A DNA stretch of 63,996 nt, filler included, from Globobulimina sp. (lineage: Eukaryota), in assembly GCA_003354225.1 (NCBI GenBank). It is 7 parts of 7 records of this genome, joined end to end, with 100 filler letters (N's around TTAATTAATTAA, not from the genome) between each part and the next. Parts side by side here need not be neighbours in the genome. Positions count along the whole stretch, not along the records: positions 18,579 to 27,757 come from PIVH01000050.1; 6 more parts are not named here. One strand, given 5' to 3'. Below the pieces are notes generated by a model. It ran no database searches and was not told where the DNA came from. It saw only the letters and a program-made list of their open reading frames with translations. The translations under genes were made by a program, and so were the position numbers. Positions 3,555 through 55,956 of the stretch are shown here, one piece after another (the stretch's first letter is position 1; the number at the start of each line of letters is the position of its first letter).

Positions 3555-6500
3555 ATGAATAACGACCCCAAGCCCCCCCACTGTATTAATCATACGCTGC
3601 GCTGTGGAAATCACTCCTCACTTTCAAGCGCAGTTTCTGTACCAGCAGAGGAGTATAATTATAACTTATTTCAAAGTATGACATCGCGGGACGCCTCATT
3701 ATCTGGTTCGAATTTATTCGTTTCCAATGAGAGTGACGCCGGCGACATTGTTTTAAATCAACGTAATCAGCATAGTAATGTTGTAAATGTACCATTAGCA
3801 AATAATCCATATGGCGATATTGGAGCTCTTTCGAGTGAGGAAGATACCGCTTCAATGGATTCCTATTTAAACAATTTGAATGATTTAGAGTTAGAATCAA
3901 ATAAAAATGAATATAATCACACCTCAAACGAGTCTGACAATTCTGAGGATCGTGATTTAATTCTGCAAGATATTGAGAGCAGCAATAAATTGAGAGATGA
4001 CTTTCTATTCGAACGCAAGAACGGATTACTTATTTGTCAATGGAATGTGGATGGATTCACAAATAATATTAGGACCCATCTGCACTACATTATTTGTACC
4101 AAATGTCCAGATATTTTCGTATTGCAGGAAATGTATAAATTTTATGACAAAAATTGCAGTGATTGGAATGCCGTAATTAAAGGATATAAATCAATCAAAA
4201 TGAAGAAAGATGGATATGGCAAAGTTCTGGTATTAATTCGGAATGGCATACACCACGAACGTATAAATATAAATTTTAAACATAATAATGTCATCGATAA
4301 ACGCATTGAATCATTGAATGAGTTTGACTCGGACTTTGAAGCAAAGCGTACGAATTTATTAATGACCAAATTGTATACAATCACTTTGAAGGTGTATAAC
4401 AACACTATGGCGCAAGCATTTATTATAAATACGTACTATCGTCCACAAAATGGCTCGCCGCAGGGATCGGATATAAATCTGATACTGAAATATTACGGGC
4501 TTTTAGTCAAGAAACCAGCCATTAAGAACCACCCAGTTTGGACAGGAGGCGACTTTAACGCCCATAACAATGCATGGTTCAACGGAGAAATTCGGAGTTC
4601 GAAGGCACAGAAATGTGGCGACATTCTATCAGATTGGATATATAAAAACAAATGGAATGTCCTAAACGACGGTGAACCAACAAGGATCAGAAAGAAACAA
4701 AGAACCGCTCCAGATGTGGTCATTACAAATAGCAGAACGAAGGACGATGATTGGAAGTGTTGGTCGGAGGATTTGAGTGATTTTGATGAGAAACGCTATT
4801 TATCTGACCATGTATGCTTATATTCGTATCATAGTGGCAGCGATTTATACGAAGTATGTCCCGATGAGTTTGTCATAAAAATGGGAGAAGACAGGAATTG
4901 GGATAAATGGGAGAAGGAGTTAGCTATCAAAGTGGCGGAATGGAACGGAAAGTACGGTGATAAAATCAACAAACTCATTGACCATTACTTGGAAGTATAC
5001 GGCAATGGGAATTGCGATATAAATCGCCGGTACCTGAAGGACCACGTTGGCTTATCCGAAGATGACATTATTGAAGCGGTAGAAGTGTATTTTAAGCGGG
5101 TTATCATTGATACATCCATCAACGCTCTCGGACTTAGAAAGAAATCAAAGGGCAAAAGCATGCCGTGGATGACCATGGAGATTAAAAATGCCATTTCGGG
5201 CTTCAAATCGTATAAACAAAGATTCGAATCGTTCTCAAAAAAGAAAAAGAGGAAATGTAAAGGGATATTGAATGCAAAAAGAGCGATTAGAAATGAACTA
5301 TGCGAAAATGGTAAAATCGCATGGTTGAGAGACGAAATTAGGTCAATGGGCAACGAGGGACGCATGCCATGGAAGAAAATAAACGCGATAATCAAAAATG
5401 ACAAAGCCGCATCGGATATGATACCGGTTTGGTATAATCGTGACGGCACAATCAACGCTATTAAATCGAGCGAAAAAGCCGCAAATTATCTGAATTATAT
5501 CCATCGATTTGACGATGACGAAATGGAGGAAGAAGTGGAGAAAGTGGAAAATAGAAAGTTTGATAAGATTGTAAATGATTATAATCAATCAAACAGAAAG
5601 AAATTTGGTACGAAGCTGCACAGAGAAGAAACAATCAAAATGAATTCGATTATGCGACGTGATGAAACCAAGAAAATTATTATGTCATTCAGTAGGAAGA
5701 AGGCAGGGAATTCGGATAAGTCAAATTATGTTTTGTTGCAGAATGGTATCGATATCTTAGGAGAGGGTTTATATCGATGCTATAATATCTTATTCATCCT
5801 TGGAATCCGAGTCAAATTCATGAATGTCCGGGAAATTTCGTTAATCCTGAAAGCAGGGAAAGAGGCAAAGTATATGGATAGTTACCGACCGGTCGCGCTC
5901 CTGTCAAGCTGCAGCAATCCTTTTGACAAATGGATGGCTGGCAGGTATCTAACATATGGAATCAAAATGAGAATTATTAGACTGCGGCACTTTGGCTTCA
6001 TCAAAGGGGTCGGCTGCAACGACACCATCGCTTATTTAGTTGAACTGATATGGAACAATCGAATAATTCGCAGGGAGACGCACGTCATTTTGATCGATTT
6101 CAAAGCAGCGTTTGATACTTTGCAGCATAAAATGATTTTAGATTGTATGGAATTTGAGATTGGTGTCACAGGATTTGCTTTGAGATATTTATACGTCGCC
6201 TTAGAATATCGTTGGGGCCGTGTCAAAGTATATGGATTTTACAGCGAATGGCGCCAAGACGTCATCTTCATATTCTTCTCAATTGAGTTTGACGTCGTAA
6301 ATGAGCTGAATTTGGGACTTACGCTGATTGGATACGCGGATGATAACAATCTGGTGTCCGATGGGTCTGTACATGGCAAGAAGTTGGAGGAGAATATGCA
6401 GTTTGCAGTGGACTTAATATGTTACATTGCGAAGAAGAAGCGATTGTTTCTTCAGCCGAAGAAGCAAAATTACATTGTGATCGATGACAGATTAAACAAA

Positions 6501-8684
6501 AAGAAACACGAAAAGATGTACTATAACATCACGATGGATGGTAAGGAGATTACGAAGAAATATTCGCCGGTGAAATATCTCGGTGTATGGATTGATTGGA
6601 ATTTAAATTGGGACCATCAGTATGCGACCACCATTAGTAACGCCCGGAGAGCATTTATTAACATTTATAATCGATATAAATATGCATCGGATATGCTGGC
6701 TAAGTATCTCGTGAATATCTACAAAGCCTTCGTTTTCCCGAAGATATTATATGCTGCAGAGATATGGTACTCTGACAAGCATCCATTGACACAGAAATTG
6801 CGGGCGCTGTACAATGACATGATTCGTCACTGTAACGGTACGAATAGATCAAATCCCATAACATGGCAGCATGTACAAATTGGGGAATCTGATTTAGCCC
6901 AAACGGTTAAACAAAAAAAGTCAACATTCTGGTCACGGCTGCTTAGATCACCAACCTCCAACGTTCTCAGTCAAATTATTAAGGATAAATATTGGACGGC
7001 ATGGAGCGCGGAAAGAGTGATTGATGACACTTTCTCTTCCAAAGCACGTGAGAGCCAAATGAATGATAGTAAGCCACAGAATGATTTGGATATTGTTATA
7101 AATAACAAAATCCGAAGGAATGGGATGAATAAGGAATGGACGTTCAAAGAAAACAAGCGCCACGTTCATGGGTACAAAGATAAGAAGACTTCGCCGAATA
7201 AATATAGAATGCGATTCAAAGGACGCTATCACATTTTATACGAAATATTTGACGAAGCTAAAAATGCAAAGAACTCCGATTACATTTTTATGAAGGATAT
7301 CGATTTCGGACTTATTCCGAAACGGATTTCACATCAAAATGATTTCATTCCCATACCAAGAAACCTGACGTACCAATCGAGCCGCAATGACGCCGAGAAA
7401 CTATCATTCAGTAAAAAGTGGGTCAGACAGTGGGCGGACACGCTTTTTTGTCACGATGGAGATCCACAAAATATTTACAAAGTGGAAGACAAGAACATTC
7501 AGCTTTTATTCTCCGATGGTTCGAATAAAGACATGTTTGGAGGCGCCGGCTATTGGTCATGTAATTTAAAGTATTATTTGGAGGAAGCAGACTTAGATGA
7601 ATTGAGGCGAACCAATTACGTGTCAATGAATCGTAACAGCTCCAATGGAGTCAGTGATTATTGCTATGGAGCATACCATACTGGAATAAGAAGCTCGATC
7701 GACCATTGTGAACTGGATGCAGCTATCCATGGAATCTCTGATTTATATAGATATTGTTATGACATATTCAATGTCAATGAAAAAGATGTGCCAGGATATG
7801 TTTGTATTGCTATCGACAGCGAAACAGTGGTAAAATGGCTGGCTGGCGAATGGCACTCGAACGATCCATTAATTTGCGACAAAATCAGAAGATTCTATGA
7901 GGCGGTAAGCGATTTAGCTGACTTCAACATCGATGTAAATATTATATGGGTGAAGGCCCACAATAATGAGATTGGTAACGAAGCTGCCGATGACATGGCG
8001 AAAGCGGCCATGTATGACATTTATCAGACGCGGAATTGGAACGAGGTTGAGAAGATTTATTCGAATACGGAGTGGATAAATTACGGCATGAAAGCAGTAA
8101 AGAAAGAAAATAAACGATACGGGCTATATAATACTTTAAATAAATGGTCTAAGTATCGAGAGAGAAGAGGAAGCAGTGGAGACAGTGGTGATGCACTGAC
8201 AAAGAATTTGATTGATTGGGAGATAGGTTATCACTATGCCTATAAATATGAACTGAATAATCTGTATCGATGGCAATGGTGCATCATTACGCAATTGCGA
8301 TGTGGCCATAATTGTTTGAATGCGCAAAGAAAGTATGGTATTGAGACGAAAATGTGTGCCCACAATGCCTGTATCAACGAAGAAGAAAATCTGAAGCACT
8401 TTATTTGGAATTGCCCACAGTATGAGCCATATCGATCGAATATGGTTGAAGCGATGAGTGATTTGTATCAAGTGGCTCATGATATGAGCTTTATGGATTC
8501 CGATTACAATAATTTGATTAAATTTATGTTATTTCCGTATCAATTGGAACTATCGGAGGATGACATAAAAAATGATAAGCAGAAACGAATAAGTTTATTG
8601 GACAAAAGAATAGAAATTTTGAAACATTTATGCGATTATGTAAAACAAACGAAGCGATTCGAAAGCGAATCAATGACTCAATAG
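3555..8684 (+). CDS. LINE ORF2: AP endonuclease + reverse transcriptase + RNase H + CCHC finger
   Basis: APE motifs: WNVDG, LQE, GDFNAH, PDVVIT, SDH. RT motifs: YRPVALL, HFGF, IDFKAAFD, YADD, KYLGV. RNase H motifs: FSDGS, CELDA, IDSE, WVKAH..GNEAADDMAK. C-terminal CAHNAC..HFIWNC. Confidence 0.95.
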   Translation: MNNDPKPPHCINHTLRCGNHSSLSSAVSVPAEEYNYNLFQSMTSRDASLSGSNLFVSNESDAGDIVLNQRNQHSNVVNVPLANNPYGDIGALSSEEDTASMDSYLNNLNDLELESNKNEYNHTSNESDNSEDRDLILQDIESSNKLRDDFLFERKNGLLICQWNVDGFTNNIRTHLHYIICTKCPDIFVLQEMYKFYDKNCSDWNAVIKGYKSIKMKKDGYGKVLVLIRNGIHHERININFKHNNVIDKRIESLNEFDSDFEAKRTNLLMTKLYTITLKVYNNTMAQAFIINTYYRPQNGSPQGSDINLILKYYGLLVKKPAIKNHPVWTGGDFNAHNNAWFNGEIRSSKAQKCGDILSDWIYKNKWNVLNDGEPTRIRKKQRTAPDVVITNSRTKDDDWKCWSEDLSDFDEKRYLSDHVCLYSYHSGSDLYEVCPDEFVIKMGEDRNWDKWEKELAIKVAEWNGKYGDKINKLIDHYLEVYGNGNCDINRRYLKDHVGLSEDDIIEAVEVYFKRVIIDTSINALGLRKKSKGKSMPWMTMEIKNAISGFKSYKQRFESFSKKKKRKCKGILNAKRAIRNELCENGKIAWLRDEIRSMGNEGRMPWKKINAIIKNDKAASDMIPVWYNRDGTINAIKSSEKAANYLNYIHRFDDDEMEEEVEKVENRKFDKIVNDYNQSNRKKFGTKLHREETIKMNSIMRRDETKKIIMSFSRKKAGNSDKSNYVLLQNGIDILGEGLYRCYNILFILGIRVKFMNVREISLILKAGKEAKYMDSYRPVALLSSCSNPFDKWMAGRYLTYGIKMRIIRLRHFGFIKGVGCNDTIAYLVELIWNNRIIRRETHVILIDFKAAFDTLQHKMILDCMEFEIGVTGFALRYLYVALEYRWGRVKVYGFYSEWRQDVIFIFFSIEFDVVNELNLGLTLIGYADDNNLVSDGSVHGKKLEENMQFAVDLICYIAKKKRLFLQPKKQNYIVIDDRLNKKKHEKMYYNITMDGKEITKKYSPVKYLGVWIDWNLNWDHQYATTISNARRAFINIYNRYKYASDMLAKYLVNIYKAFVFPKILYAAEIWYSDKHPLTQKLRALYNDMIRHCNGTNRSNPITWQHVQIGESDLAQTVKQKKSTFWSRLLRSPTSNVLSQIIKDKYWTAWSAERVIDDTFSSKARESQMNDSKPQNDLDIVINNKIRRNGMNKEWTFKENKRHVHGYKDKKTSPNKYRMRFKGRYHILYEIFDEAKNAKNSDYIFMKDIDFGLIPKRISHQNDFIPIPRNLTYQSSRNDAEKLSFSKKWVRQWADTLFCHDGDPQNIYKVEDKNIQLLFSDGSNKDMFGGAGYWSCNLKYYLEEADLDELRRTNYVSMNRNSSNGVSDYCYGAYHTGIRSSIDHCELDAAIHGISDLYRYCYDIFNVNEKDVPGYVCIAIDSETVVKWLAGEWHSNDPLICDKIRRFYEAVSDLADFNIDVNIIWVKAHNNEIGNEAADDMAKAAMYDIYQTRNWNEVEKIYSNTEWINYGMKAVKKENKRYGLYNTLNKWSKYRERRGSSGDSGDALTKNLIDWEIGYHYAYKYELNNLYRWQWCIITQLRCGHNCLNAQRKYGIETKMCAHNACINEEENLKHFIWNCPQYEPYRSNMVEAMSDLYQVAHDMSFMDSDYNNLIKFMLFPYQLELSEDDIKNDKQKRISLLDKRIEILKHLCDYVKQTKRFESESMTQ

Positions 8685-9195: not shown

Positions 9196-9295
9196 NNNNN
9201 NNNNNNNNNNNNNNNNNNNNNNNNNNNNNNNNNNNNNNNTTAATTAATTAANNNNNNNNNNNNNNNNNNNNNNNNNNNNNNNNNNNNNNNNNNNN
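9196..9295. other. Artificial contig linker (N44-TTAATTAATTAA-N44); same linker at 18479-18578, 27758-27857, 37020-37119, 46276-46375, 55391-55490
   Basis: Identical 100-bp spacer with stops in all six frames. The complete contigs decrease in size (9183, 9179, 9162, 9156, 9015 bp), as in a size-sorted concatenation. Confidence 0.98.
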
Positions 9296-18284: not shown

Positions 18285-18578
18285 AAATAAACTAACCAAA
18301 TAAGAGGCAAATTTATAATGACAAGAAACCATTAATTTCTTTTTTGCCGATTGACAACCTTTAGTTTGTATTGATTTGTATTGATTTGAATCACTGCGAA
18401 TTAAAAGCTTAGATGTTACCTTTAGTTTGTATTCATTTGTATTGATTCACTTACCGTATTTTTCCTTTTTATTTTACCNNNNNNNNNNNNNNNNNNNNNN
18501 NNNNNNNNNNNNNNNNNNNNNNTTAATTAATTAANNNNNNNNNNNNNNNNNNNNNNNNNNNNNNNNNNNNNNNNNNNN

Positions 18579-18715
18579 TTTCATTTTTTTCATTCAGTTT
18601 GTGGTCTTCCCAGACCACCAGCTTTTTTTCCACTTTTTTCATTTTTTTCCTTTAATTCGTGGTCACCAAAGACCGTTATCCATTCCTTCATTTTTTCACA
18701 TTTTTTCAATTTTTT
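18579..18715 (-). repeat. Degenerate 60-75-bp A-rich repeat units with a small GGT..ACCAC hairpin (same family as 19305-19525)
   Basis: Reverse complement reads GGTCTTTGGTGACCACGAATTAAA and GGTGGTCTGGGAAGACCACAAACTGAATG. Confidence 0.7.
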
Positions 18716-19142
18716 GTGTTTGAGGATGGCATGCTTTAAAACAATACGGCGTTGTTTAATAAACAAATAAAATACCAACCAAATAATATCAACAAAATAT
18801 GTCTTTCCATTTTATTTTATGCTGTTTGGTATTGATTACCATGCATAAGATCCTTTCATTGAGTGACATAAGATCCTTTATTGATTACCATGCAAATTGT
18901 GACTAAATTCATCATGCAACTTGACATCTAAATAGATGTTTTTCAGATGTGTTTGGTTTGCTTCAGAGATAATTTGACTATTTGCTTTCTACGAAATGGT
19001 CGATTGTAACGTTCAGTTTTCTGCAGTTTTTCAAAAGCGTTACTGAATATTGACCAGTCTAAATCTAAATGCACGGCTCACTAATTACGTCCAATTGTGG
19101 CGACTAGTGACAATTGCAATGATTTTTGGCCGCATTTTATTT

Positions 19143-20155
19143 ATCATATATTAAGCGGCGAGAATAAGTGAAGGAATGACTATATTAAGCGACTAGAATG
19201 AGAAGTAATGAGTTGGATGGAATTGGTGATGAAATATTTGGTTCTTATGATGATGGCTTAAGGCATCGCCATCATCACCACAACAACAAACAACCCAAAA
19301 TTTGAAAAAAATGAAGGAAAAGATAGTGGTATTGGATCACCACAAACTGAATGAAAAAAAGGAAAAAATTGAGAAAAAAAATGAAGGAAAAGATTGGTGA
19401 TGATCAGCCACCGCAGATTGAATATAAAAAAATTGGAAAAAAGAAATTTGGGAAAAATGAATTTATGGTCTTGGCTGACCACGAACTGAATAGAAAAATT
19501 GAAAAAAGAAAAAAGAAAAAAAATGAAATGGATGAATATGATGATGATGATGAGCTATTGCTTGCCCATCATCATAATTTGAATTTATTGTTTTTTTTGT
19601 TTGTAGATATCTCTCCTTGCACACGTGCGCAAAAACATTTATTCGTTTACAAAAATAAAAAAATAAACATGATGGGCGTGCACATAGCTCATCAACATAT
19701 CCATCAACATCTAATTTTCTTTCCTTTCCAATTTTTCAGTTATTTGTTGATGACAATCACCGTCTAATTTTTCTTTTTTCTTTTTTCAATTTTTCTATTC
19801 AGTTCGTGTTCAGCCAAGACCATAAATCCATTTTTCCCAAATTTTTTTTTCCAATTTTTCTAGTCAAACAGCGGTGGCTGATCACCACCAAACTTTTCCT
19901 TCATTTTTTTCCATTTTTCTCAATTTTTTCATTAAGTTTGTGGTGATCAAATACCGCCATCTTTTCCTTCATTTTTTTCCATTTTTTCAAATTTTGGGTT
20001 GTTTGCTGTTGTGGTGATGATGGCGATGCCTTAAGCCATCATCATAAGAACCAAATAATTCATCACCAATTCCATCCAACTCATTACTTCTCATTCTCGC
20101 CGCCTTAATACGTGACTGCATTGCTTTCCTTATTCTCACCGCCTTAATATATGAC
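19143..20155. repeat. Long imperfect inverted repeat (arms about 19143-19525 and 19765-20155, spacer about 240 bp)
   Basis: For example, 19195-19310 is the near-exact reverse complement of 19983-20097. Confidence 0.92.
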
Positions 20156-20857
20156 GGCATTCCTTTATCATATATGACGGCATTGCTTCCCATCCAAATC
20201 GATATCACTGTCGCCTCAGGATTTGAACCTGTATCTTCTGGATTAATCCAGTTCTCTGCTTGAGCTATGCGACCATTTCGATCTGTTTCATTTACCATTA
20301 TCGATTTTCTATGTGGAGGTTTATTTTTCAAATGAATTATAAACCATCTGACGAGACAGTAGAGGCAATAGAGTAAGGACTTTTTATTAATCCACGCTGC
20401 TGGCAAGCAATCATCTTAGACATAAGTAGACATTAAATGTAACGTTCTCGAAAAATACTTAGTTTGACATAGTCTAATGCAATCATAATTTGAACAGTTT
20501 TTGCAGAACCATACTAATCAGCATTTATACTTGGTACTAGAAAGATCATTGCTTCGTTACAAGCAAATCAACTTCAATTCACTCAACCAAACCAACCACA
20601 AGGGATAGAAGTCAAACTTACACTGTCCATCTAACAGCCCAAAGGTTTAAAACCAACATTACTTTACTGGAATCTTGGAACGTTGCCATTGTCTAGTTAC
20701 TAGATAGAAGTTAAAAATGCATTTTTCATTTTGAACATCAAAAAACTTTGGATTAACAAACATCCAAAGTTTTTGGTGTTTAACACTTGCAACATTTTTG
20801 TACATTTAACTGTTTTAAATATTTTAAACACTAAAAAACTCTTGCATTAGTGTTTAC

Positions 20858-21342
20858 GGTTGCGCGGAGAGTCAGCCCCTGCTTTGCTTGAGACTGACCT
20901 CTGCTTATGCGTCGCAGATTGAAATAATATCTCTGGTTGCCTTACAAGACCGTTTAGTATTGTCAGCGGTTGGGAACGGGTAAATCTTTGAAACTTCCAC
21001 TTTGGGAGGAGTGGACGCGTCCAGCCGTGATTGTGGGTAATCCCCGGCTTAGCAAGCTCGGTTGAGAGTGATCTTGTTACCCTGTCTGTATCGGCGGACT
21101 CAAAACGGTTCTCGCAGCTAGAGAATCATCCTGTGCTTGCAAAGATCCTGGTGAGGCCAGGTGACGCTATTAGTTATCAAATGATGACTGATATCCCGTG
21201 AGGTAAAGTGTCTAACTGTGTTCCATGAATGTTAAAGTTGTAATTTTCTACGGAACTGTAAACCAGTTAGAACCAAGCACAGAGGACATAAACATAGTCT
21301 GAAGGCAATTCAGGTGGAATAATCTTTGCAGTGACAAGCACA
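20858..21342 (+). ncRNA. Candidate large structured RNA of unknown class
   Basis: GC-richer island with no ORF in the track and at least 10 nested helices. Several G-U pairs work only on the + strand. Probable pseudoknot (see findings). Confidence 0.65.
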
Positions 21343-21559
21343 CTTCAAGAAAATATTTTTAACTTTTTAAAGTGAGCTTTTCATTTCCAAAACTCAGTAT
21401 GTACATAATTTAGATTTGCACATACTGATTTTAGCTGCTAGCAAAAAATTATTCAAACTGATTTTTCATCACTTTATGTTTTTGTCATTTAAAAAAGCTT
21501 GCTTGTAACATAACATTTGTTTGTATGTAGTTTTTTAACTTGATCCTGTACAAAAAGGA

Positions 21560-24500
21560 ATGAGTAAACGCACATATCCGTTTGAAAATGATGCACCAAA
21601 CAACCAAAAAAGACATAAACAAGATAATAATAAACAACCTATTTTTAAACAAATTGAACATGAATTAAATGAATATAATGAGTATGATATTATGAAAGAT
21701 TATTTTGAGTCTGAAGCATTAGTTGCTAAAATCGAAGAAATGGATTTATTTGAGGCAAATATAAGTATGGAACAGTTCATGTTACTTATATATCAATCAA
21801 CAAGCACAAGATATAGAAGCAAAGGAATTCTGCAATGCGACCCAAACCAATTATACTCAAAATTCACAGTTAAGTATTTAATCTACATTGTTTGACAGCA
21901 AAACCAGAGTTATACTTCATATTATTATATTAGAATGCGATTAACTGGATGTCGATAAAATGTCCACTACCAACTTTTAAATACACAATGCACATTGCCA
22001 TGCCAAAGCTTTCAACGACATCAAGTAACATAATTGGACGTGATTGTGAATATCTAACTAAATTTGATGAAAAAAGCAATGCATATGATTGGGATAGATA
22101 TTATGGTAAAGTAATAAAATATAATAAGCGAAATAATACGCATTTAATTGATATAGGATTTCGTAAAGATTGGGTATCGTATAACAGCAAAGTTGATTCT
22201 GGTGAGTTATCAATTATTCAAAGAGTGGATCGTAATACGGCAATTCATCCGTCAGTTATTTTTCATATTATGCAGCTAGTACCAAAAGCCTTTACAGAAA
22301 CACAATCTCTAATGTCACCTGTGTGGGCTCAGTTTAGTAAAACATTTTATGGTCAACGAGTAGATTTATGGAGAGGGCTTAAATTTGGTATGGTGCTTGT
22401 TGATACTGAGTCAACGTTTAAACCATTAACAATAACTATTGGTGATTGTTTAGAATTACAGAATGGAGATAAATTTGTATGCACTGATTTTCGTGGCAAA
22501 TGGTTGAAATGCTGCAGTATATTAAAGTTATATTTCAGTTATTTTCTCCTGACTTGGTAACTAAACATTTTTACTATACAGTTTTGCAGAATTTGACATG
22601 TATATTTCAAAGAAATATCCAACTGTTTTTTCAACGTTGGAATTAACTCAGACATACAAGCAATGGAAGCAAAAAAGAAAAGATAATAATATTTTAGTGC
22701 CAATAGTTAATAAATATTATAAGTTTGATACTACGAAGCTTCAAGTAAAAAGGTATATTTATTAAATATATATATTCGAATACTTTAAACACATTCAATA
22801 ATACAAGGCAAATATATTGTCTGAATTGGAATAATATATCACAAAAACAACAACGTAGTGTCAACAATAGATTTTTTATAATTGCTATATTTGGTAAAAA
22901 ACAAGAGAGATTTCAATTGTTTAAAGGTAGTTGGTGTAATTTAGTTGCAAAGTTTAGAACTACGTTTGGTAAGGTACCCAAATGTTTTTTTGAAAATGGC
23001 AACTTATTATTACCATTCGCTATGTGGATGGACGGTGTGAAGTGCTGGCAATTTAAATCAACGTCTTCGGAAGGTATGTATTTTGTAGGTTCTAAGTGTA
23101 TATAAAAAAATATAAATATTTTATCACTTCAGTTGTGTTACAAATGAAACCGTTAACTTTAGATGCTTCATTTTTGAACAATAAATGTTCATGTTTTCAA
23201 ATAGCAAGTTGGGATCCAAATGCTTTAAAAAGCGATATTAAAAAGCTTCTTGTGTTAAGTTTAACGATCATTATGTATCTTACTAAACACAAACAAATGT
23301 TTGTGCAGTTTTTTAGCGGAAGAAATGCAAAAACCAATCAGAATCATCAAGAACGGTAAACACTGTACTGCACGAATGTGTTTTGTGGTAAAGGTCGGAG
23401 ACCATCAGGAGTCACATCTGTGTGCAGATACAATGAAATTAAATACTCAAACTGCTTTACCATGTTTTAAATGCAAAACCAAGCAGTGTAATATGACTAA
23501 CCCTGAGTCCAAAGAACACTATTTTTTGAAATCTGCAGAAGATAGACTTGAATGCGTAGCAGTTATAAAATCAGTTCCTGACTGGAAAAGATTCGGCTAC
23601 AAGCCAGTAGCACAAAGTGATTCATCATTGATCAGACTGGGACCAGATCTAAATCAACATTTTGTTGAAGATGTAGCACATTTAACTTTAAATTTCAGCA
23701 AACAAGAATTTGAGTTTATAACAACTGAATTCATAACAGGTACTTCTATTATTTTGGAATTATACTATTTTTCATAATGATTTTCGCGAACAAAAATTTT
23801 TGTAATTCTTTTGCTAAACAACAATGATGTGGAAATGATATAAAAACAAAATAAGGACAAAATTCAAGGCTGTTTTTTGAGGATTTAGTTGATTGCATGC
23901 ATAGCAACAAAATGACTCATAAATTATATATGTCTAATTTGTGCAAAGATGGTAAATCTTTAAAAGATTTGTCATTAGAAGCAGCCGTAAATTTAATAGT
24001 TAAGAATTCAAAACGAAAAACTTTGTCAAACAAGTTAGTTTTTTGCATGTTGCATATATTTAGATTGCTTATGTTTTAGTTTTACCAAAATATGTTAGTA
24101 ATAAAAAGATTTCATGCCAAACTTTTACTTCATTGAACTGGATGAATTCAATTATATTACATTTAAACACTGGACAAAGAAAATATAGACGATGTTATTT
24201 AAAATTAGGTACAAGCTGGTTGAGGGCAGCTGCGCAACTCGGGGTGAAGGTTTCTGCGAAAAACAGAGAGCTTTCAGAATGGAGTCACACAAAATGTCTG
24301 ACAAAGAAATTAGGGTTTACGCGTTGTACTATACATAATATATTTCATGCTGTTCAGTCTGTACGTATTTATGATAATTTAGTATTGTATAGTTGTAAAT
24401 CGTTTGAAGCGGGGAATTCATTTATTAAACATGCAGTGCAACATCCTGCTGAAGTTGATGCAACATACTCAGATTCTATTTCTCGAAGATATATATTATT

Positions 24501-25387
24501 CTATAAGATTTTACTATTAATCTTAGGTGGAATGTGGAATGCAGATCATCAATTGTGTTTGGATATTGAAAATGCAAAATATAAACTTCCTCGGAAATAT
24601 TTAGTTGCATTGTTAGCACGAAATCAAAAACATGATAGTCTAAACTGGATATCTAGATTTGTTGAACATAAGTATCATCCCTTAAGTTTAGTTTTTATTA
24701 TAATAATTTTAATTTTGTTTTGAAAATTATACAAATGAAAAACTTTTTATAAGATCCACGGTTTACAATTGACACCGTTGAGCATAAATCAAACTGGTTA
24801 TTTGAGGAAAAAAAACACCAATTTCACAGCGTAAATATTGATCCAGTTCGATTTTTACGTAAAATATTGAATAAATTAAAACTGACATTAGAGAAAGTAA
24901 TATATGTGAAAAAAGCACAGAAAATCACATGGAGCTGTTGTAGCAAAGTATATGATTCTCAAAGTTAAATCAACATTTTATTTTTCTATTTTTGAGTCAG
25001 TATAAAAATTTAAAATATAATATTGTTCTAAACATAGTTGGTCAGTATATATCATTCCAGTCTCCACTAGAAGATTTTCAGAATGAAATTTTGTTAATAT
25101 CAATGATTTTTGAAATAAATTATATGATTTCAAACTCAAACTCACTCAGAAAACAAACACTAATATTTGGGAAAAAAATTGAGTTTCAAAAAACAAAGGT
25201 GTTGACAAGATACGGTAAATTAAGTAACAAAATGATATGTATTGAACCAGAAATGTTTAATGCGCCAATATATTGTTATGCTATGAAAAATATGGTTTAT
25301 GTATGTGGATATACTGGAAATAACACTGAAATGTTCTATGATACAACAGACGATTTATATTCACAGTTTATTGAGTCTACTGACTAA
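21560..25387 (+). mobile_element. Multi-exon DDE transposase-like gene of CACTA/En-Spm (Plavaka-like) type; exon boundaries not fully resolved
   Basis: Collinear motifs across intron-separated ORFs: LPFAMWMDG (D1), VGDHQES (D2), PCFKC, EDVAH, IHNIFH..VRIYDNL..SCKSFEAGN (HxxxH..E). No terminal inverted repeats found. Confidence 0.65.
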
Positions 25388-25723
25388 CATTATTGCGTTT
25401 TTTTTGATGTTTTTCATTATTTTTGATGTTTTTCAGTATTTTTGATTTTTTTAATTTGATGTTTTCATTATTTTCAGAGAGATAAACCATCCAACCATCC
25501 TCTACCATTTCTATCTGATAACTTACCTACAGAGGCCTTCATCTATTTGACACTTATAAAGGTGGTAGAAATATTGCCAAGCCTTGAATTGTATCAATCT
25601 CATTTGATAAGGTGTGAACTGTATAGTTTCATCATCAGCTTCATCATCATCTAACTAATTCTTTCTAAAGAGAAGGAATCTGGCACATTTAATCAATCTC
25701 ATTTCACTTTGGATGAAAATTGA

Positions 25724-25811
25724 ATAATCATGGAATGTTCCAAAATAAACGGAAATAAACGGAAATAATCATGGAATGTTCCAAAATAAACGGAAATAAT
25801 CATGGAATGTT
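25724..25811. repeat. Short tandem repeat (AATAATCATGGAATGTTCCAAAATAAACGGA), about 2.5 copies
   Basis: Direct reading. Confidence 0.85.
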
Positions 25812-26198
25812 TTTTTGTTGGCAAAACTAGTGTATTATTTCAGTCGAATTATGATAAAAATATACTATGTTGAGATTAGCAGCTGAGATTTGTTGCATAA
25901 CTATGAAGCTTTAGTGCTTTTGTAATTTTATCAGTTTCATGATGCATGAAAAACAAAAAAAAGCGCTGACTCAAGACTTTGAATGTCACCCAATCAATCA
26001 TAATTTTATATACAACCCCTTTAATTGGTCGGACTTTCTGCACGAACAAAATGTTACATTAGAGTTTTCCTATTTGACCTTGATTTTGCTCATGATCAAC
26101 TTTTTTTAATCATTTGTGAATTGTTAGAGAAAAAGCTTAAGCTGTTTTGAACCTATAAATGTATTGAAAAAATGTATATATTAAAAACACCACAAAAA

Positions 26199-26331
26199 AC
26201 TCAGCAAAATATGAATATAAATCAACTGTTGTATCATAGAACATTTCAGTTTATCCACATACATAAACCATATCTTTCATTGCATAACAATATATTCGCG
26301 CGCATTAAACATTTATAGTTCAATACATATT
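26199..26331 (-). repeat. Inverted, diverged copy of the 3' end of the transposase-like gene (about 25235-25377)
   Basis: Reverse complement ATATGTATTGAAC..AATGTTTAATGCGC..TATGGTTTATGTATGTGGATA..ACTGAAATGTTCTATGATACAACAG matches, with an internal deletion of about 12 bp. Confidence 0.9.
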
Positions 26332-27757: not shown

Positions 27758-27857
27758 NNNNNNNNNNNNNNNNNNNNNNNNNNNNNNNNNNNNNNNNNNN
27801 NTTAATTAATTAANNNNNNNNNNNNNNNNNNNNNNNNNNNNNNNNNNNNNNNNNNNN

Positions 27858-28205: not shown

Positions 28206-28601
28206 ATAATATATCAGTTGTTCACATCTCTAAAGCAAAAGAAATTAAATATATATATTATTGGAGAGGAGAGAAATATATATATATGTTATTACAGCCA
28301 TTGCAGTGCATGTTTTATGTGGTTACAATTTTACAATTTTCCTGTTATTTTATTTGGAGCAGACATTATTCAAAAATAAATATAAAAAAATAAATTAAAA
28401 AAAGATGTGATTGGATGTCAGATTAAAAAAGAAAGAAAACAAAAAACAAAAAAATGTGTTTCGTTGATTTAGTTGTTTACATGTTGCTAAATTAATATTT
28501 GTCGATTTAATTTTTTTTATTGTTTGGTTTGTCCTTTGATGCAAAATGAATAATTAATAATAAACTTGCAGTCTGACAGTAACACTAAACACTGGTTTTT
28601 C

Positions 28602-31092
28602 ATGGCAGACTCCTGTGATGACGGCAATTTCGAGTTTAATGCAATATGGTGGTACGCAGCCATTGCAGTCAGCACAATTTGCTTATTATATATTTTAATT
28701 GATTACTTTTTGAATTCCAAAATTCGCCGCAATCCATCGTTTTTAATGATATCTCGTGCAATATTTGATTACATCGCAGTAATAATCGTATTCTATGCAA
28801 TATCGACAGACCGCATCTCCTGCGAACACACCCAGCACAATTACAAGATTTGTCAATTTTGGGGTGCTTTATTTCTATTTTCTTTATATGTCCCGGCCGT
28901 GTATTATGCATCGATTTGTGTCCAGTTATACCTGACTCTACGAAACCCCTTTCGAGCACCCTCATCTCACTCATTCTCATTCCATTTCGCAGTATTATTG
29001 ATATGCTTTTTTGTAGTATTATTTGTAGCCACCGCAGGCAATCACGGCGAAGGACAGTTCGAATACAGGCCAGCATTCCAGATTTGTTTCATGAAACAAA
29101 GAGACGGTTTAAACGGATGGAACGTTGCTGTCATATACATTCCAACCTTCTTCCTCGTCACCGGCGGCATCTTTGCCAATCTGTGGAGCATCAAACAATT
29201 AACCCGCCGCATATTGGACGACACCTTCGAACTTCGCTGGATTGTCATCAAGACACAAACTGCCATCATCACATGCTTCACTATCAATTATATCTTGCAG
29301 GGCATTAATTGGATAATACTCTTCGATAAATCGGAGAAAACACCCAAATATGACCCCTACATTCTATCCGTATTCTGCTTCATTGCCATTGTCTTTGATG
29401 CTCTTACCTGGCTCATACGGAACGTAGTCCTGGCTCGAAACACTCAGAAAAGCAACAAACGCTCCAACATTGCGCTTACTGCCACCACAAAGAAAATAAA
29501 TAACATATCGGACGCCTTACGCAAAGAGGTCATCACATTTATCACTGCGGGCTTGGCTCAATCAGCTACGCTTAACTCCTCCAAAAACGTCAAACGACGA
29601 CGTAAACGGTCCGTAGGTGCACGGAATCAGAATGTCGTTGATGATACGGGCTCCGCCGGCTCCCTTAATGGTCCACGTAAACGATCCGATGTGGCGGCCC
29701 AGTTATTATCTGAGAAAACGCCAACAGAAATTACCTGCGAGAAAATTGGAAATTTCTCTCAATTGTTCCGTCCGCATGTCACCGAAAACTATTTCCTAAT
29801 GAGTGAGGATGAAAAATCGGATCACGACATTTTTGAGGAAGCGATGGTCGCTGTCGGAGGAACAAAAGCAGTGATGGTCAAATGTGAGTTGGCCTCGGCT
29901 GCAGCGGAGGAACAGAAGCAGTCACTGCAGGATTATATGGCTACGGATAATACAGATATATTATCAGATAAGTATTATCCCACCAACATTGATGGTCAAT
30001 ATCAGGAACATGTAATTGAACAATATCCCATTGGCTCGGTGGGGGCGGAACAGACAAATGTTGTGTTTACGGATTATGCTCCAGTGATTTTTAGCTATTT
30101 ACGGCGGAATGTGTATGGTGTTACAGATGAGCAATATAAATTTTCTATATTGCCCGATAAGGACGTTAGTAAAGTGTCTTTGGCGTTGGTTGCGAAATTC
30201 AGTGAAGGTATTTTGCTTTGATTTGATATTTTAAGTTTACATTTTGCTGTAAAGTACAATATTAATAGGTCGGAGTGGTGCTTTTTTCTTCTTTACCCAG
30301 GATATGAAATATTTGATTAAGACATTGACCAAAGATGAAGCTCAATTGTTGTTAACCACATTGAAGCAGTATACACTTTATATGGTGAACAATGCGGAAA
30401 CATATTTGTCAAAATATTTCGGACTGCATTCGATTTTGTTATATTCACATTCGATATACTTTGTAGTGAATAAGAATGTGTTTCCATCACTGTATAAGCC
30501 ACCAAATGAGACATATGATATTAAGGGCAGTTGGGTCGACAGACATACACAGCACCATGTTATCGATAGGAAGTTGATGAAAGATTCAGATTTACACTCG
30601 ACATTGATTTTGAATGAACGGCAATCAGCAGCAATGCATCAACAGTTGGAGGCGGATACATTGTTTTTGAGCAGTGTCAATATTATGGATTATTCACTTT
30701 TGTTGGGCATATTTTATACCAAAGTGCATAGAATGGCCACGGATAGATATAAATCGGTGATTCGTTTGGATATCAATGAGAACGAAGAATTGAAGCAAGG
30801 TCATGGTGGCGACCATGGTATGGATTTGAGTGATTACAATATTTATGACAGTGTTTATGTGGAAGGACCCGGGAGATATGTTATTGGCGTCATTGATATG
30901 TTACAGAAATGGGATTGGAATAAAAAAACGGAACGGTTTGTAAAAGGATTACGCGGTAAAGACAGAAATGGTGTTTCTTGTGTTCCACCACAGCAATATC
31001 AGCAACGATTTATGAAGAAAATGCTTGAAATTGGAATTGGAAATGAGGACAGTCAGGACACAGAAAATGACGGTTGTCAGTATAATGTATAA
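28602..31092 (+). CDS. GPCR-PIPK: 7TM receptor-like domain fused to phosphatidylinositol phosphate kinase; exons 28602-30207, 30269-31092
   Basis: Seven hydrophobic segments with cAR-like features (CQFWGA, LRNPF). Then FTDYAP..F..LR, FSEG|RSGAFFFFTQD.KYLIKT, YDIKGS, KDSD, IMDYSLLLG, GVIDMLQ, SCVPP. The 61-bp intron restores the GRSG loop. Confidence 0.92.
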
Positions 31093-36939: not shown

Positions 36940-37119
36940 CACAGTTGTAATTTTCTCTCATTTTCAGACATCGCGTTTTGAAGCACTCAATACAACTAAA
37001 AAGAACAAATATGCAATATNNNNNNNNNNNNNNNNNNNNNNNNNNNNNNNNNNNNNNNNNNNNTTAATTAATTAANNNNNNNNNNNNNNNNNNNNNNNNN
37101 NNNNNNNNNNNNNNNNNNN

Positions 37120-43873: not shown

Positions 43874-45975
43874 ATGGCAACTGGAACTGTTCTTCCAGTA
43901 CATAGAAAAATACAGGAAGAAGGGTGGCTAGAACATCAAAGTTATTCACATATAGATGGGGTACATTGGACGCGGCAATGGGTGGTTGCAACTCACACTG
44001 CGGTCTATGTATACGATAATTACAAAGTTTTGTAAACTTTATTTTTTGAAATAATTGTACGTTAACGTTGATATACAATTTTGCAAATAAGTGTTATAAA
44101 AATGCAAAACAAATTATTCATGGAACAGATATGTTATCGGCGGAACCGTTAGATGGCGGAATTGGTGGACAGAATCTTTTGTGCATCAAAACAAATAAAG
44201 AAACAGTATATTTTAAATGTATTGGATATTCAGAGCAAAATAGTTGGAAACACAGCTTAAATGTATGTAAGAACAGTATAAAAATTCCAATTTCTGTTCA
44301 ATGTGCAACAACAACAAATTACAATTCTAATTTTGAGCTAACCGTACCATATTATGTTGGATATTCGTTTCATGAAATTATTAAAGATATTATTGCTTAC
44401 TTGCATGTTACATATATTCCAATTAAATTCGCTCCAAAAACTATTCATTCAAACTCATTCTGTAGAAAGAAAATTGATTTTACTGCTCATGACTGGGATG
44501 ATTGGAACTGTCGCGATAAATTATATCATGGGCTTAAAACCACTGATTTCCCAAAGAATAATGTCATAAAAAATGGCATAAAATTAGAGGTTGATATTGA
44601 TACAAAACAACAACAAACAAAAACAGCACAGGTTAAAAGAATGGAGAAGAAAACTTCTGAAAATGAAGAAGAAAAAAAGAAAAAAAATGAGATGAAAAAA
44701 TGGTTGGTAGAAAATGAACATAATGAATTGTTATGGGATCGCTTGAAGAATTCTGATCGAAGGGAAAGGTATAAATTTCAACAATTACGAATGGAGTCAA
44801 TGGACTCAAAACATTTGAGCATTACATTGCAAACACAATATATCAAAGAAAATGAAATCCGGATAAAAGAATTGTTACAGAAAGTAAATTGCAACACACA
44901 TTTAGCTGATAAATTAGTGAAAATATTAAATGATTGTGCACTAATTCGGGTTACTGGAGTTCATGAAGAGATCCTTCGAATGATTGTTAACTTTGTGACA
45001 GTCAATGGTTTAATGCCTATATATTATACTTTGCCATGTTTGCCGTTGTTTCATCCAATTACTCTCAATGACGACACAAAGAAGCTCTATTATAATACGT
45101 TGAAAATATGGTGGAATGAGGTGAGAGTATCTCGTAATCATTGGGGCGCGTTTCAGCCGAAGTATATTGAGAGTGCAGCTGTGGAGTTTACTCAATTTCT
45201 CACCAAACGATTAACGGAAAATGGAGATATGTTGAAATATTATTTAGTGCCACATATGACAATGGATAAAACATATAATATATGGAATTCACAGGAAATG
45301 TTATCATTTCAATTAGGAAATCGGCACTGTAAATGTGTGGGTGGTGTCGAATTATTTCAAAGATTGTATTTAGAGGCAGCTGTTGAGGGATTCTTTGGTT
45401 TGGGTCACTGTTTTGTCGCAGATTTACAACATATTAATGAATCACATGGAGACAATTGGTGCTTTGATGGGAATGGATATGTGTTAATGGCAGATAATAG
45501 CTTTAAAAAAGTATGTAATTTAGTTGTTGGAGATATGGTGAGATCATTTCCCAATTTTGTATCAAGAATTGTATGCTGCATTACTTCCAATATAAATGAT
45601 CGAATTGAAATGGTTGAGTTGAAGAATAATTGTTGGATTACATTTGAACATCCGGTGTTAATTAAAAATGGTGATTGTGGTATTATTGATGGATATGATG
45701 GCTTAAATACATTGGATACTGATGAAATTAAAAAATATAACTTATTATGGGTACTACCAAAGCAAATATCATTAATTCAATTAAGATATCAAGATAAAAT
45801 CTATAATTTTATGTTAGATTCGCATCATACAATAAATGTGAATGGAAATTGGTGTTGTACATTGGGACATGATTATAAAGGGGAAATTATATATCATCCA
45901 TTTTGGGGAAATTCTGCTGCTCTTAAATCGTTTTTAAAATCAAAATGTGAGACATATCCACACGTTGTTTTCTGA
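43874..45975 (+). CDS. PH domain + C-terminal Hint (Vint-type) domain protein; exons 43874-44026, 44092-45975
   Basis: PH: EEGWL..WTRQWVV..VYVY..YFKC..EQNSWKHSL, joined by a 65-bp intron. Hint from Cys at 45460: CFDG..VLMAD..K.V..L.VGD.V, ITFEHPV, YNFMLD..H...VNG..C.TLGH..HPFWG. Confidence 0.88.
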
Positions 45976-46375
45976 GTTGTCTCGTACACGGTCTTTCGGA
46001 CCAGTTTTTAATAAATATATTGAGCAGAGGTTGAGCTATATCAATCGTTCTAAATACCCATAAAAAGCGTATACATTTCATTCGACAATTTGTACTGCCA
46101 AAAATTAAAAAAGTCAATAATTGGATAAAAATGTTTCTAGCTCATGACATCATTCATACACATAGTCTGCAAATTTTGTGCACACAATGTTTATAAGCAG
46201 CATATAAAATATGATCTGTTCCTTTCAATATTGTTTCAAACAAATTATTTAATAAATCCATAAAGGTTCCACCAGNNNNNNNNNNNNNNNNNNNNNNNNN
46301 NNNNNNNNNNNNNNNNNNNTTAATTAATTAANNNNNNNNNNNNNNNNNNNNNNNNNNNNNNNNNNNNNNNNNNNN

Positions 46376-47578: not shown

Positions 47579-47651
47579 GCCGACATAGCACAGTGGTTAA
47601 TGCATCTGCTTCGTAAGCAGAGGGTCGCGAGTTCGAATCTCGCTGTTGGCT
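47579..47651 (+). tRNA. tRNA-Thr (anticodon CGT)
   Basis: Acceptor GCCGACA/TGTTGGC; anticodon stem TCTGC/GCAGA with loop TT-CGT-AA; T arm GCGAG-TTCGAAT-CTCGC; T-run follows. Confidence 0.96.
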
Positions 47652-55222: not shown

Positions 55223-55956
55223 TGTAAACTTTGTAAAATCATAATTTAATCTTTTTAATTTTTAATATTTCTCAGAATTATGAAAAATATATGCAATGAT
55301 GAAAATGCATAGAAAAAAAAGTTGTATGAATGAAATCGAAAAAAAATTCACCACGGTACAGTTCAATACTTGCAGAGTCATGAAATTCATNNNNNNNNNN
55401 NNNNNNNNNNNNNNNNNNNNNNNNNNNNNNNNNNTTAATTAATTAANNNNNNNNNNNNNNNNNNNNNNNNNNNNNNNNNNNNNNNNNNNNTCATTGTGGA
55501 ATAAATGGCCGCATACATTCAGTTTATAACTACCTTCATTTGCTTCAATTTCCATTGGATTTTCCCTCTGCTTTTGTTTGTTGTTATGGCTGAGCACTCA
55601 TAAAAAAATCTGAATACTTTGAATCCAATTACCGTTCGAAAGTTGAGAATTTCTGAGTAATACTATGATTTGTTACTCAACTCAGGAACCGTTCACTGAG
55701 CACTAACCAAATAATTTCTGAGCATTCCAATATACTTTTCCATTGTGTTAATCATCATATGTAGCCATAATAATATTGCTTCAATCTGTAGTACCCCCCA
55801 TCGTACCTTCCATACATGACTACAATCCCAACTGTTATGGTCCAACTATTCTTGACTGCAGTTATGGTTCAATTAGCTGTTTATTAAACTTTGTGATATT
55901 GCTTGTATTTCTGAAGGAAACTAAGTAGGAATTTCACTGAGACATTGCCGCTTAAT

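Follow-up and report, generated by a model that had tools for sequence, protein, structure and literature searches.

Does a GC-rich, fold-prone stretch of DNA in an AT-rich protist genome encode a structured RNA? The question is raised by positions 20858-21342 (hereafter the island) of a 63,996-nt stretch of Globobulimina sp. DNA (GCA_003354225.1; seven parts joined end to end), which was analysed as a whole and is referred to here as the window. A first interpretation, the sequence-only reading, described the island as one RNA of ~480 nt with three domains and a pseudoknot, oriented by its G-U pairs and tied to a transposase gene downstream. Our analysis retains a non-coding, fold-prone sequence that recurs elsewhere, but not the single, three-domain, pseudoknotted, G-U-oriented and transposase-tied RNA. 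The 3' part of the island recurs, its similarity to other sequences has a limit on the left side, and the long arm of the second domain is not conserved. The answer to which we lean, at a little short of an even chance, is a composite, in which a unique 5' half is joined to one copy of a non-coding repeat that is small and dispersed.

A GC-rich island without coding content

The GC-content of the island is 46.6%, and its two flanks of 300 nt have 31.0% and 27.0%. The window overall is AT-rich (33% GC) and carries long unbroken open reading frames (ORFs) for eukaryotic proteins. The longest stop-to-stop frame overlapping the island has 92 aa and lies on the minus strand. The GC profile and the frame scan thus bear out the description of a GC-richer island without ORF in AT-rich DNA. 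A coding reading was rejected: the four longest frames over the island gave no Pfam match at E ≤ 1, and the peptide-like words common to the island and its homologue L001, a metagenome contig presented below, end in stops. The helices and shorter words named by the sequence-only reading are all present at their positions, with pairing in all eight helices checked (five of them perfect) and three G-U pairs. The parts of the island are listed here, with a strand where one is assigned; X1 is a sequencing run discussed below, MFE is the minimum free energy, and z-scores compare it with dinucleotide shuffles (100 for the whole island and 100 for each domain and strand).

20858-21342 (plus strand): GC-rich, ORF-free island as the sequence-only reading defined it; 46.6% GC, MFE -163.0 kcal/mol, z -3.05, no Rfam family
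20860-20908: domain 1 hairpin, GCGGAG-A-GTCAG / CTGAC-CTCTGC; pairs verified; locus-specific, absent from L001; z -3.16 on the plus strand and -4.39 on the minus strand
20931-21123: domain 2 long arm; helices verified; z -2.05 on the plus strand (4/100 shuffles as good) and -1.58 on the minus strand; 5' strand and interior locus-specific, only the last ~29 nt in the conserved block
21095-21166: block common to the island and L001, from the 20-mer scan, local alignment and blastn
21131-21146: left inverted word CTGTGCTTGCAAAGAT; either the 5' side of the terminal helix or the strand of the closing helix and of the pseudoknot
21147-21161: hairpin CCTGG/CCAGG (hairpin 1); unchanged in L001 and in each further version observed
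21168-21193: 11-bp hairpin TATTAGTTATC/GATGACTGATA (hairpin 2); pairs verified; variable in the second X1 version
21211-21271: long hairpin TCTAACTG-GTTCC / GGAAC-CAGTTAGA (hairpin 3); pairs verified; tip variable
21274-21282: inner copy of CAAGCACAG; partner of 21131-21139 in the domain 3 model of the sequence-only reading
21299-21313: small hairpin CTGAA/TTCAG; pairs verified
21322-21342: right inverted word ATCTTTGCA-GTGA-CAAGCACA; pairs with 21132-21146 in the MFE fold of 21095-21345
21356-21360 (plus strand): T5 run, 14 nt past the island; weak as evidence for a terminator, since such AT-rich flanks abound in runs of T and A

A homologue shares one block of the island

A scan of a metagenome collection with the 20-mer at 21147-21166 returned one record, L001 (PJEL010249737.1, 1176 nt), with the match at the end of the contig. 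PMC6783311 describes its accession set as the unclassified contigs from a metagenome associated with Globobulimina, a foraminifer. L001 may or may not stem from the species of the window, and may therefore be a paralogue rather than an orthologue of the island. A blastn comparison of the island with L001 gave 57 nt at 87.7% (E 1.6e-13), and the local alignment covers 21095-21166 with seven transitions, four transversions and one deleted base. L001 diverges from the island directly after 21166, the same point as a joint in the third X1 contig described below.

Upstream of the conserved block, L001 presents ~190 nt at 48% GC that cannot be aligned with the island: the best local score 5' of 21095 was 20, which 46 of 300 shuffles reached. 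A common 5' block at 20925-20945 suggested by MAFFT was rejected, as the shuffle test did not support it. Where the domain 1 hairpin would be, L001 has tandem repeats. The conserved block contains the 3' strands of both basal helices of domain 2, whose base duplex in the window (with 20929-20959) reaches -25.2 kcal/mol, with 11 of 300 shuffles as good. The best partner for the same 3' strand in L001 reaches -12.6 kcal/mol, a value that 273 of 300 shuffles surpass. Over the homologous 262 nt, L001 folds at chance level (z -1.09; 29/200 shuffles as good). With domains 1 and 2 unalignable and the domain 2 partner missing in L001, the view of the island as one three-domain RNA of ~480 nt did not hold.

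The word TTTTGTACAT occurs seven times in the tandem repeats of L001 (272-469, plus strand), just 5' of its GC-rich part. This 10-mer is also found once in the window, at 20796-20805, 62 nt before the island, which a rough estimate puts at the borderline of chance.

Other versions of domain 3 in run X1

The island was found in a single sequencing run, X1, which may be the window's own sample; almost none of its words occur in X2 and X3, two other runs from that sample. No RNA run turned up with the island, which is uninformative as to its expression. Contigs of X1 were aligned to the window at 80% likeness or more. They come from a de Bruijn assembly, in which identical flanks of variants are built in, and the summed depths given below are sums over contigs and not copy numbers. 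A contig of 3815 nt carries the window's version over 20415-24229. A second contig is identical at ~21144-21175 and then presents another version of 21176-21243, with six substitutions (21176, 21181, 21186, 21192, 21193 and 21204) and five indels. Four bases are inserted at ~21181-21183, in the loop of the 11-bp hairpin, and nine are deleted at the tip of the long hairpin (one, three and five bases at 21231, 21235 and 21239). Four changes fall in the stem of the 11-bp hairpin: two leave their pairs intact (A-U to G-U and U-G to U-A), and two, at 21192 and 21193, break the two basal pairs. A third contig joins 21166 to 21243 and thus appears to lack 21167-21242, including the 5' strand of the long hairpin; its shorter side has 23 nt, so that the joint is of low confidence. 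The safe conclusion is that other versions of domain 3 exist in X1, and nothing beyond.

Conserved blocks and predicted helices do not coincide. In the X1 versions and in L001, similarity stops at edges (21166/67 and 21243) that run through hairpins. In viral contigs, six patterns drawn from domains 1, 2 and 3 gave no match each. Matches of an 18-mer in prokaryotes were discarded: 13 were found in unrelated bacteria, all only 18-24 nt long, where chance alone would give ~17 (596 Gb, two strands, 4^18).

Folding strength without strand preference

The island folds better than its shuffles, as the sequence-only reading would require: the MFE of the plus strand is -163.0 kcal/mol, compared with -141.5 ± 7.1 kcal/mol (z -3.05; none of 100 as good). 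The reverse complement gives z -3.06, again with none of 100 shuffles as good. For domain 3 the z-scores are -4.12 on the plus strand (0/100) and -3.30 on the minus strand, and for domain 3 plus its tail -2.98 and -3.88, respectively. The absolute energy is lower for the plus strand, and so are the energies of the plus-strand shuffles. The fold signal is equal on both strands, so that the G-U pairs, real as they are, do not orient the island as had been deduced. Such a signal is what would be expected for inverted words at the level of DNA.

The 8-nt word CAAGCACA does occur twice, at 21274 and 21335 (to 21342), and the 9-bp pairing of the proposed pseudoknot, 21138-21146 with 21322-21330, exists. 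However, the closing helix strand 21131-21139 overlaps the pseudoknot strand by two bases, so that at most seven of the nine pseudoknot pairs are compatible with it. Positions 21132-21146 can also pair with 21322-21342 as one bulged nested helix, by way of the second CAAGCACA. This nested helix is the MFE fold both of 21095-21345 (-70.9 kcal/mol, z -2.43, 0/200 shuffles as good) and of 21131-21345 (-62.4 kcal/mol), whereas the arrangement with the pseudoknot sums to about -60.4 kcal/mol (-55.5 and, for the 7-bp duplex, -4.9) with no penalty for the pseudoknot counted. The two folds lie within ~2 kcal/mol of each other in these models. The pseudoknot is possible, yet nothing requires it, since the plain nested fold is predicted to be at least as stable.

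Search against known RNA families

We searched the covariance models of Rfam 15, counting a sequence as a member when it scores at or above the gathering score of the family. At these scores the only match in the whole window was a tRNA at 47579-47651, and the island had none. A 1001-nt slice (20600-21600) searched with relaxed filters gave 13 matches at E ≤ 10, all far under gathering (best E 0.4); 12 of them lie in or touch the AT-rich flanks and a single one, at 8.7 bits, falls within the island. With laxer filters, the 271-nt slice 21095-21365 matched three models of C/D box small nucleolar RNAs (snoRNAs) at E 5.4-7.6 and 9-16 bits, all anchored on one AUGAUGA. Six matches in L001 lie on its tandem repeat (best E 0.18). 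No Rfam 15 family reached its threshold in the island, among them RNase P/MRP, signal recognition particle (SRP) RNA, telomerase RNAs, small nuclear RNAs, snoRNAs, group I/II introns, small ribozymes and internal ribosome entry site (IRES) elements. In this respect the sequence-only reading, which could not fit the island to a known family, was right.

Several candidates were tried and rejected. A C/D box snoRNA would have to rely on one RTGATGA word (21181-21187) and CTGA words; no complementary flanks were seen by eye, and the C-box word is altered at 21181 and 21186 in the second X1 version. The head of a short interspersed element (SINE) was discarded in view of the absence of A-box and B-box patterns on either strand of 20840-21360 and of any tRNA, 7SL or 5S match in the island. 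Likenesses of short words to U2, U4, U6, the 7SL Alu domain and large-subunit rRNA, seen by eye, were dismissed because those Rfam models give nothing. An omega RNA of the IscB/TnpB/Fanzor kind was set aside, as Pfam found no RuvC-type nuclease gene among the neighbouring frames. A scan for bacterial-type promoters and terminators is uninformative for a eukaryote.

A pattern scan of the island found no strict conserved region CR-I or CR-V, no Sm-site and no C-rich template-like duplication, with loose matches only. The scan for a telomerase template (a permutation of the telomere C-strand and one further base or more), made with no reference telomere motif from the organism, gave only partial duplications of odd, non-C-rich words (for example 21286-21296 with period 6 and 20880-20889 with period 5). 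A word at 21182-21192 is altered in the second X1 version. Telomerase RNAs with type-3 promoters, described for Diaphoretickes, have an upstream sequence element (USE) and a TATA box ahead of their start. In Table 1 of PMC8287931, the consensus words of the USE share a CCC-purine core. No USE-like CCCRYW word was found on either strand of the 200 nt upstream of five candidate starts, with a consensus taken from that table that may not be the one of this lineage.

Origin of the island

In the composite reading, the 5' part (domains 1 and 2, 20858-21094) would be specific to this locus. The 3' part would be a copy from a small family of GC-rich sequences that are non-coding and dispersed, which is evident for 21095-21166 and probably extends to ~21342; further members would sit in X1 and in the unbinned contig of the foraminifer-associated metagenome. 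The good fold would stem largely from exact words, namely CTGTGCTTGCAAAGAT at 21131-21146, its interrupted inverse at 21322-21342 and the extra CAAGCACAG at 21274-21282, to which local hairpins would add. The family may have spread or been duplicated as repetitive or mobile-element-derived DNA in a transposon-rich region, and would be neither leader nor ribozyme for the neighbouring gene. We infer this repetitive or mobile nature, the right-hand limit and the absence of function. The reading is favoured because L001 is alike only over 21095-21166, with an abrupt start at 21095, and keeps the 3' strand of domain 2 without its partner strand, and because one X1 version seems, at low confidence, to have kept just the 3' side of the long hairpin and not the 5' side. 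It is also favoured because the fold has no strand preference and owes much to exact inverted and direct words of 8-16 nt, because the homologous part of L001 folds at chance level, because the surroundings are rich in repeats (a tRNA-like element, 135-nt inverted repeats and a long interspersed element, LINE), and because other transposon sequences in the window are likewise GC-richer than the background.

Several observations weigh against it. None of the hallmarks of known mobile-element classes (A and B boxes, termini, target-site duplications, RNA polymerase III head) was found in the island. Direct repeats of at least 5 nt within 15 nt of candidate boundary pairs were absent at six of seven pairs; the seventh (20931/21342) has AT-only 5-mers, at chance level in such flanks, and these pairs are candidate limits rather than known ends. 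Since the similarity with L001 reaches 36 nt to the left of the left inverted word, the inverted words are not the termini of an element. Versions in X1 are few for a mobile family, and the 64-kb window holds no second copy of the island. The z-score of domain 3 is what RNA under selection would be expected to give, and a T5 run follows the island (a T6 run lies on the minus strand at 20833-20838). Finally, all six substitutions of L001 in 21108-21166 are transitions, a pattern that selection on an RNA would produce, although the numbers are small. Three of them (21135, 21140 and 21143) are the differences of L001 from CTGTGCTTGCAAAGAT, and two, C21140T and A21143G, would still pair, as G-U, if their partners had not changed; the 3' partners of all three (21278 or 21339, 21328 and 21325, respectively) lie beyond the end of the L001 contig.

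Some of these observations would suit a gene on the plus strand for a new lineage-restricted family of structured small RNAs, from ~21095 or 21131 to 21345 (215-250 nt), an explanation that we regard as unlikely but deserving serious weight. In this model, on the same footing, a bulged 15-bp terminal helix would join the ends and enclose four hairpins, with the unique 5' half as a leader or as sequence that has nothing to do with the RNA. The duplicated CAAGCACA might, with no better prospects, switch the RNA between nested and pseudoknotted states, with the invariant junction, hairpin 1 and the single-stranded 21272-21296 as a putative protein-binding core and hairpins 2 and 3 as its variable periphery. 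That this stretch is the gene of an undescribed RNA family of this size in foraminifer-like protists, in which the 8-nt word toggles between the two folds, the peripheral hairpins vary and several unequal copies exist, appears somewhat more doubtful still. The GC-rich island in AT-rich DNA, the fold of domain 3 and of 21095-21345 relative to shuffles, the near equality of the two terminal folds, the transitions with two wobble-compatible changes and the T5 run all speak for an RNA family, as do the two stem changes that keep hairpin 2 paired and the nine bases deleted from the tip of hairpin 3. Against this, the minus strand folds equally well and no promoter element was recognised, neither an A/B box nor a CCCRYW word. 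The changes at 21192 and 21193 break pairs of hairpin 2, G21135A would give A-C unless compensated, and in one contig hairpin 3 seems, at low confidence, to retain its 3' strand only. The clustering of differences between identical flanks is no evidence of selection, as the de Bruijn assembly builds in those flanks. A highly diverged housekeeping RNA of a fast-evolving protist (RNase P or MRP, SRP RNA, telomerase RNA or U3), beyond the reach of the Rfam models, is very improbable. Its size and multi-helix layout would fit, as would the GC island and a seemingly remote lineage (the nearest named relatives of a PIP-kinase in the window are from oomycetes, at ~30-35% identity). Yet no such family appeared at E ≤ 10 with relaxed filters in either slice or in L001, the pattern scan had loose matches only, no USE-like word lies upstream, and several unequal versions, one of them with a 76-nt gap, would be unusual for an essential core.

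The model of the sequence-only reading, a ~480-nt three-domain pseudoknotted RNA on the plus strand before a transposase-like gene, with a role as ribozyme, IRES-like leader or transposon-associated RNA, now has very little to recommend it. Its helices all exist, the island folds beyond its shuffles, a same-strand ATG follows 218 nt on and no Rfam family claims the sequence. However, domains 1 and 2 are not in the sole homologue, which has tandem repeats upstream instead. Domain 3 has other versions in X1, whereas 21336-25591 is covered there only by contigs with the window's own version (at 80% likeness; distant copies of the gene could escape). The sequence past the gene holds no inverted copy of the island, the pseudoknot shares bases with the closing helix and is not the favoured fold, and the frame searches brought up no nuclease-type ORF to use a guide RNA. 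That the island is a unique GC-rich spacer folding by chance, or a regulatory region acting at the level of DNA, with neither RNA nor repeat identity, is improbable, if less so than the last two. The per-domain z-scores are moderate, in particular that of domain 2, which would agree with it; yet none of 100 shuffles reaches the MFE of the island or of domain 3, X1 holds other versions, and the homologue in an independent record is significant. The existence of L001 already makes this explanation unlikely.

If the composite reading is true, the island adds an ordinary, unclassified low-copy repeat to a protist genome rich in transposons, and it cautions that a GC island in AT-rich DNA with a good fold does not make an RNA gene. 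If instead an RNA family is present, it would rank with the first structured RNAs specific to their lineage to be described from a foraminifer-like organism, and its apparently bistable terminal helix would be noteworthy. A literature search found no catalogue of non-coding RNAs for foraminifer-like organisms.

The downstream gene

The neighbouring gene is described by one entry.

21560-24681 (plus strand): multi-exon or frame-broken gene, the transposase of the sequence-only reading; ATG at 21560; five tblastn pieces

The ATG, predicted ~220 nt after the island, was found 218 nt past 21342. A protein of 1079 aa, P0083, matches the gene in five collinear tblastn pieces between 21949 and 24681, and is one of only six relatives of this gene among 1.84 billion representatives. 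The attribution to CACTA/Plavaka-like elements received no support from Pfam: no family was found in the frames of the window at this gene or in four relatives, and PF18759 and PF02992, which test for Plavaka and CACTA, were unmatched. At E ≤ 0.01, six of seven neighbouring frames had no Pfam match, and at E ≤ 10 three of them and P0083 together gave one, at E 0.11. The one exception, a match of PF09000 (Cytotoxic) to the frame 21934-22560, was disregarded, as its 21.2 bits are under the cut-off of 22. A word-based protein search with a piece of the gene gave no match. In the protein Atlas, P0083 lies near unnamed eukaryotic clusters, and ranks 17 and 22 are clusters with 38% Plavaka and 15% Transposase_21 members (scores 0.92-0.93, a lead only). 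The transposase label is thus a reasonable lead from the Atlas. The proposed tie between the island and a transposase was not upheld by the X1 contigs or by the search beyond the gene, and the only link seen between the two is their proximity.

Repeats and other features of the window

The contig sequence before the island is dense in repeats, with very high summed X1 depth across 18600-20727. A degenerate tRNA-like element at 20208-20274 (minus strand), within 20120-20423, scores 28.8 bits against an Rfam gathering score of 29 and is not called by ARAGORN. Its stretch has a summed X1 depth of ~9,700, compared with ~14 for the neighbouring unique contig, and it is probably a tRNA-derived, SINE-like high-copy repeat. 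Two nested inverted repeats (19189-19323/19969-20103, 135 nt; 19429-19520/19768-19859, 92 nt), both 93% complementary, form a palindromic element of ~900 nt with raised X1 depth. After the downstream gene, an inverted repeat of ~150 nt in three pieces (25226-25376/26199-26339 and 25896-26199; 88-91% complementary) flanks a stretch with a summed X1 depth of ~2,500, and an exact 36-nt tandem pair lies at 25723-25799.

Elsewhere in the window, an apparently intact LINE ORF of 1709 aa (3555-8684, plus strand) encodes endonuclease, reverse transcriptase and RNase H. The window also encodes an M1 peptidase. A seven-transmembrane receptor frame (28566-30221) followed by a PIP5K frame (30304-31092; both plus strand) represents a gene of the kind that joins a G protein-coupled receptor to a phosphatidylinositol phosphate kinase (GPCR-PIPK), split by an intron or a frame break; its nearest named relatives are from oomycetes, and unnamed metagenome proteins reach 72% identity. 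The C-terminal end of a 635-aa ORF (44068-45975, plus strand) holds a Vint (Hint-type) domain. N runs of 44 bases occur in six pairs, with 12 bases between the runs of a pair, and recur every 9.1-9.3 kb (9196-9295, 18479-18578, 27758-27857, 37020-37119, 46276-46375 and 55391-55490), a pattern that looks like masking or scaffolding and not like biology.

Comparison with known systems

The long-range 9-bp pairing of 21138-21146 with 21322-21330 across a multi-hairpin domain recalls telomerase RNA and RNase P/MRP. Unlike in those RNAs, it is accompanied by no covariance-model match, strict conserved-region pattern, C-rich template word or USE-like word, and the pairing also fits a more stable nested helix. 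With orphan structured non-coding RNAs of AT-rich genomes, the island has in common an ORF-free GC island, an energy beyond that of shuffles, the lack of an Rfam family and a terminal helix followed by a T run. It differs from them in that conserved blocks cut across the predicted helices and no promoter was recognised.

Some SINE families, such as CORE-, V- and Deu-SINEs, combine a conserved central core with unrelated 5' parts. The island is like these families in that the ~70-nt block 21095-21166 is conserved while the 5' parts are unrelated between the two records. It is unlike them in having no tRNA-, 7SL- or 5S-like head, no A/B box and no A-rich or simple-repeat tail; the tRNA-like repeat at 20208-20274 is an element separate from the island. 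Foldback or MITE-like (miniature inverted-repeat transposable element) non-autonomous repeats differ from the island in several respects: no target-site duplication was found, the versions are few, no autonomous partner has the same ends, and the inverted words at 21131-21146 and 21322-21342 are not at the limits of the repeat. The island nevertheless resembles such repeats in being short, non-coding, recurrent at several loci and placed among other repeats, with a fold that is equal on both strands and dominated by those exact inverted words.

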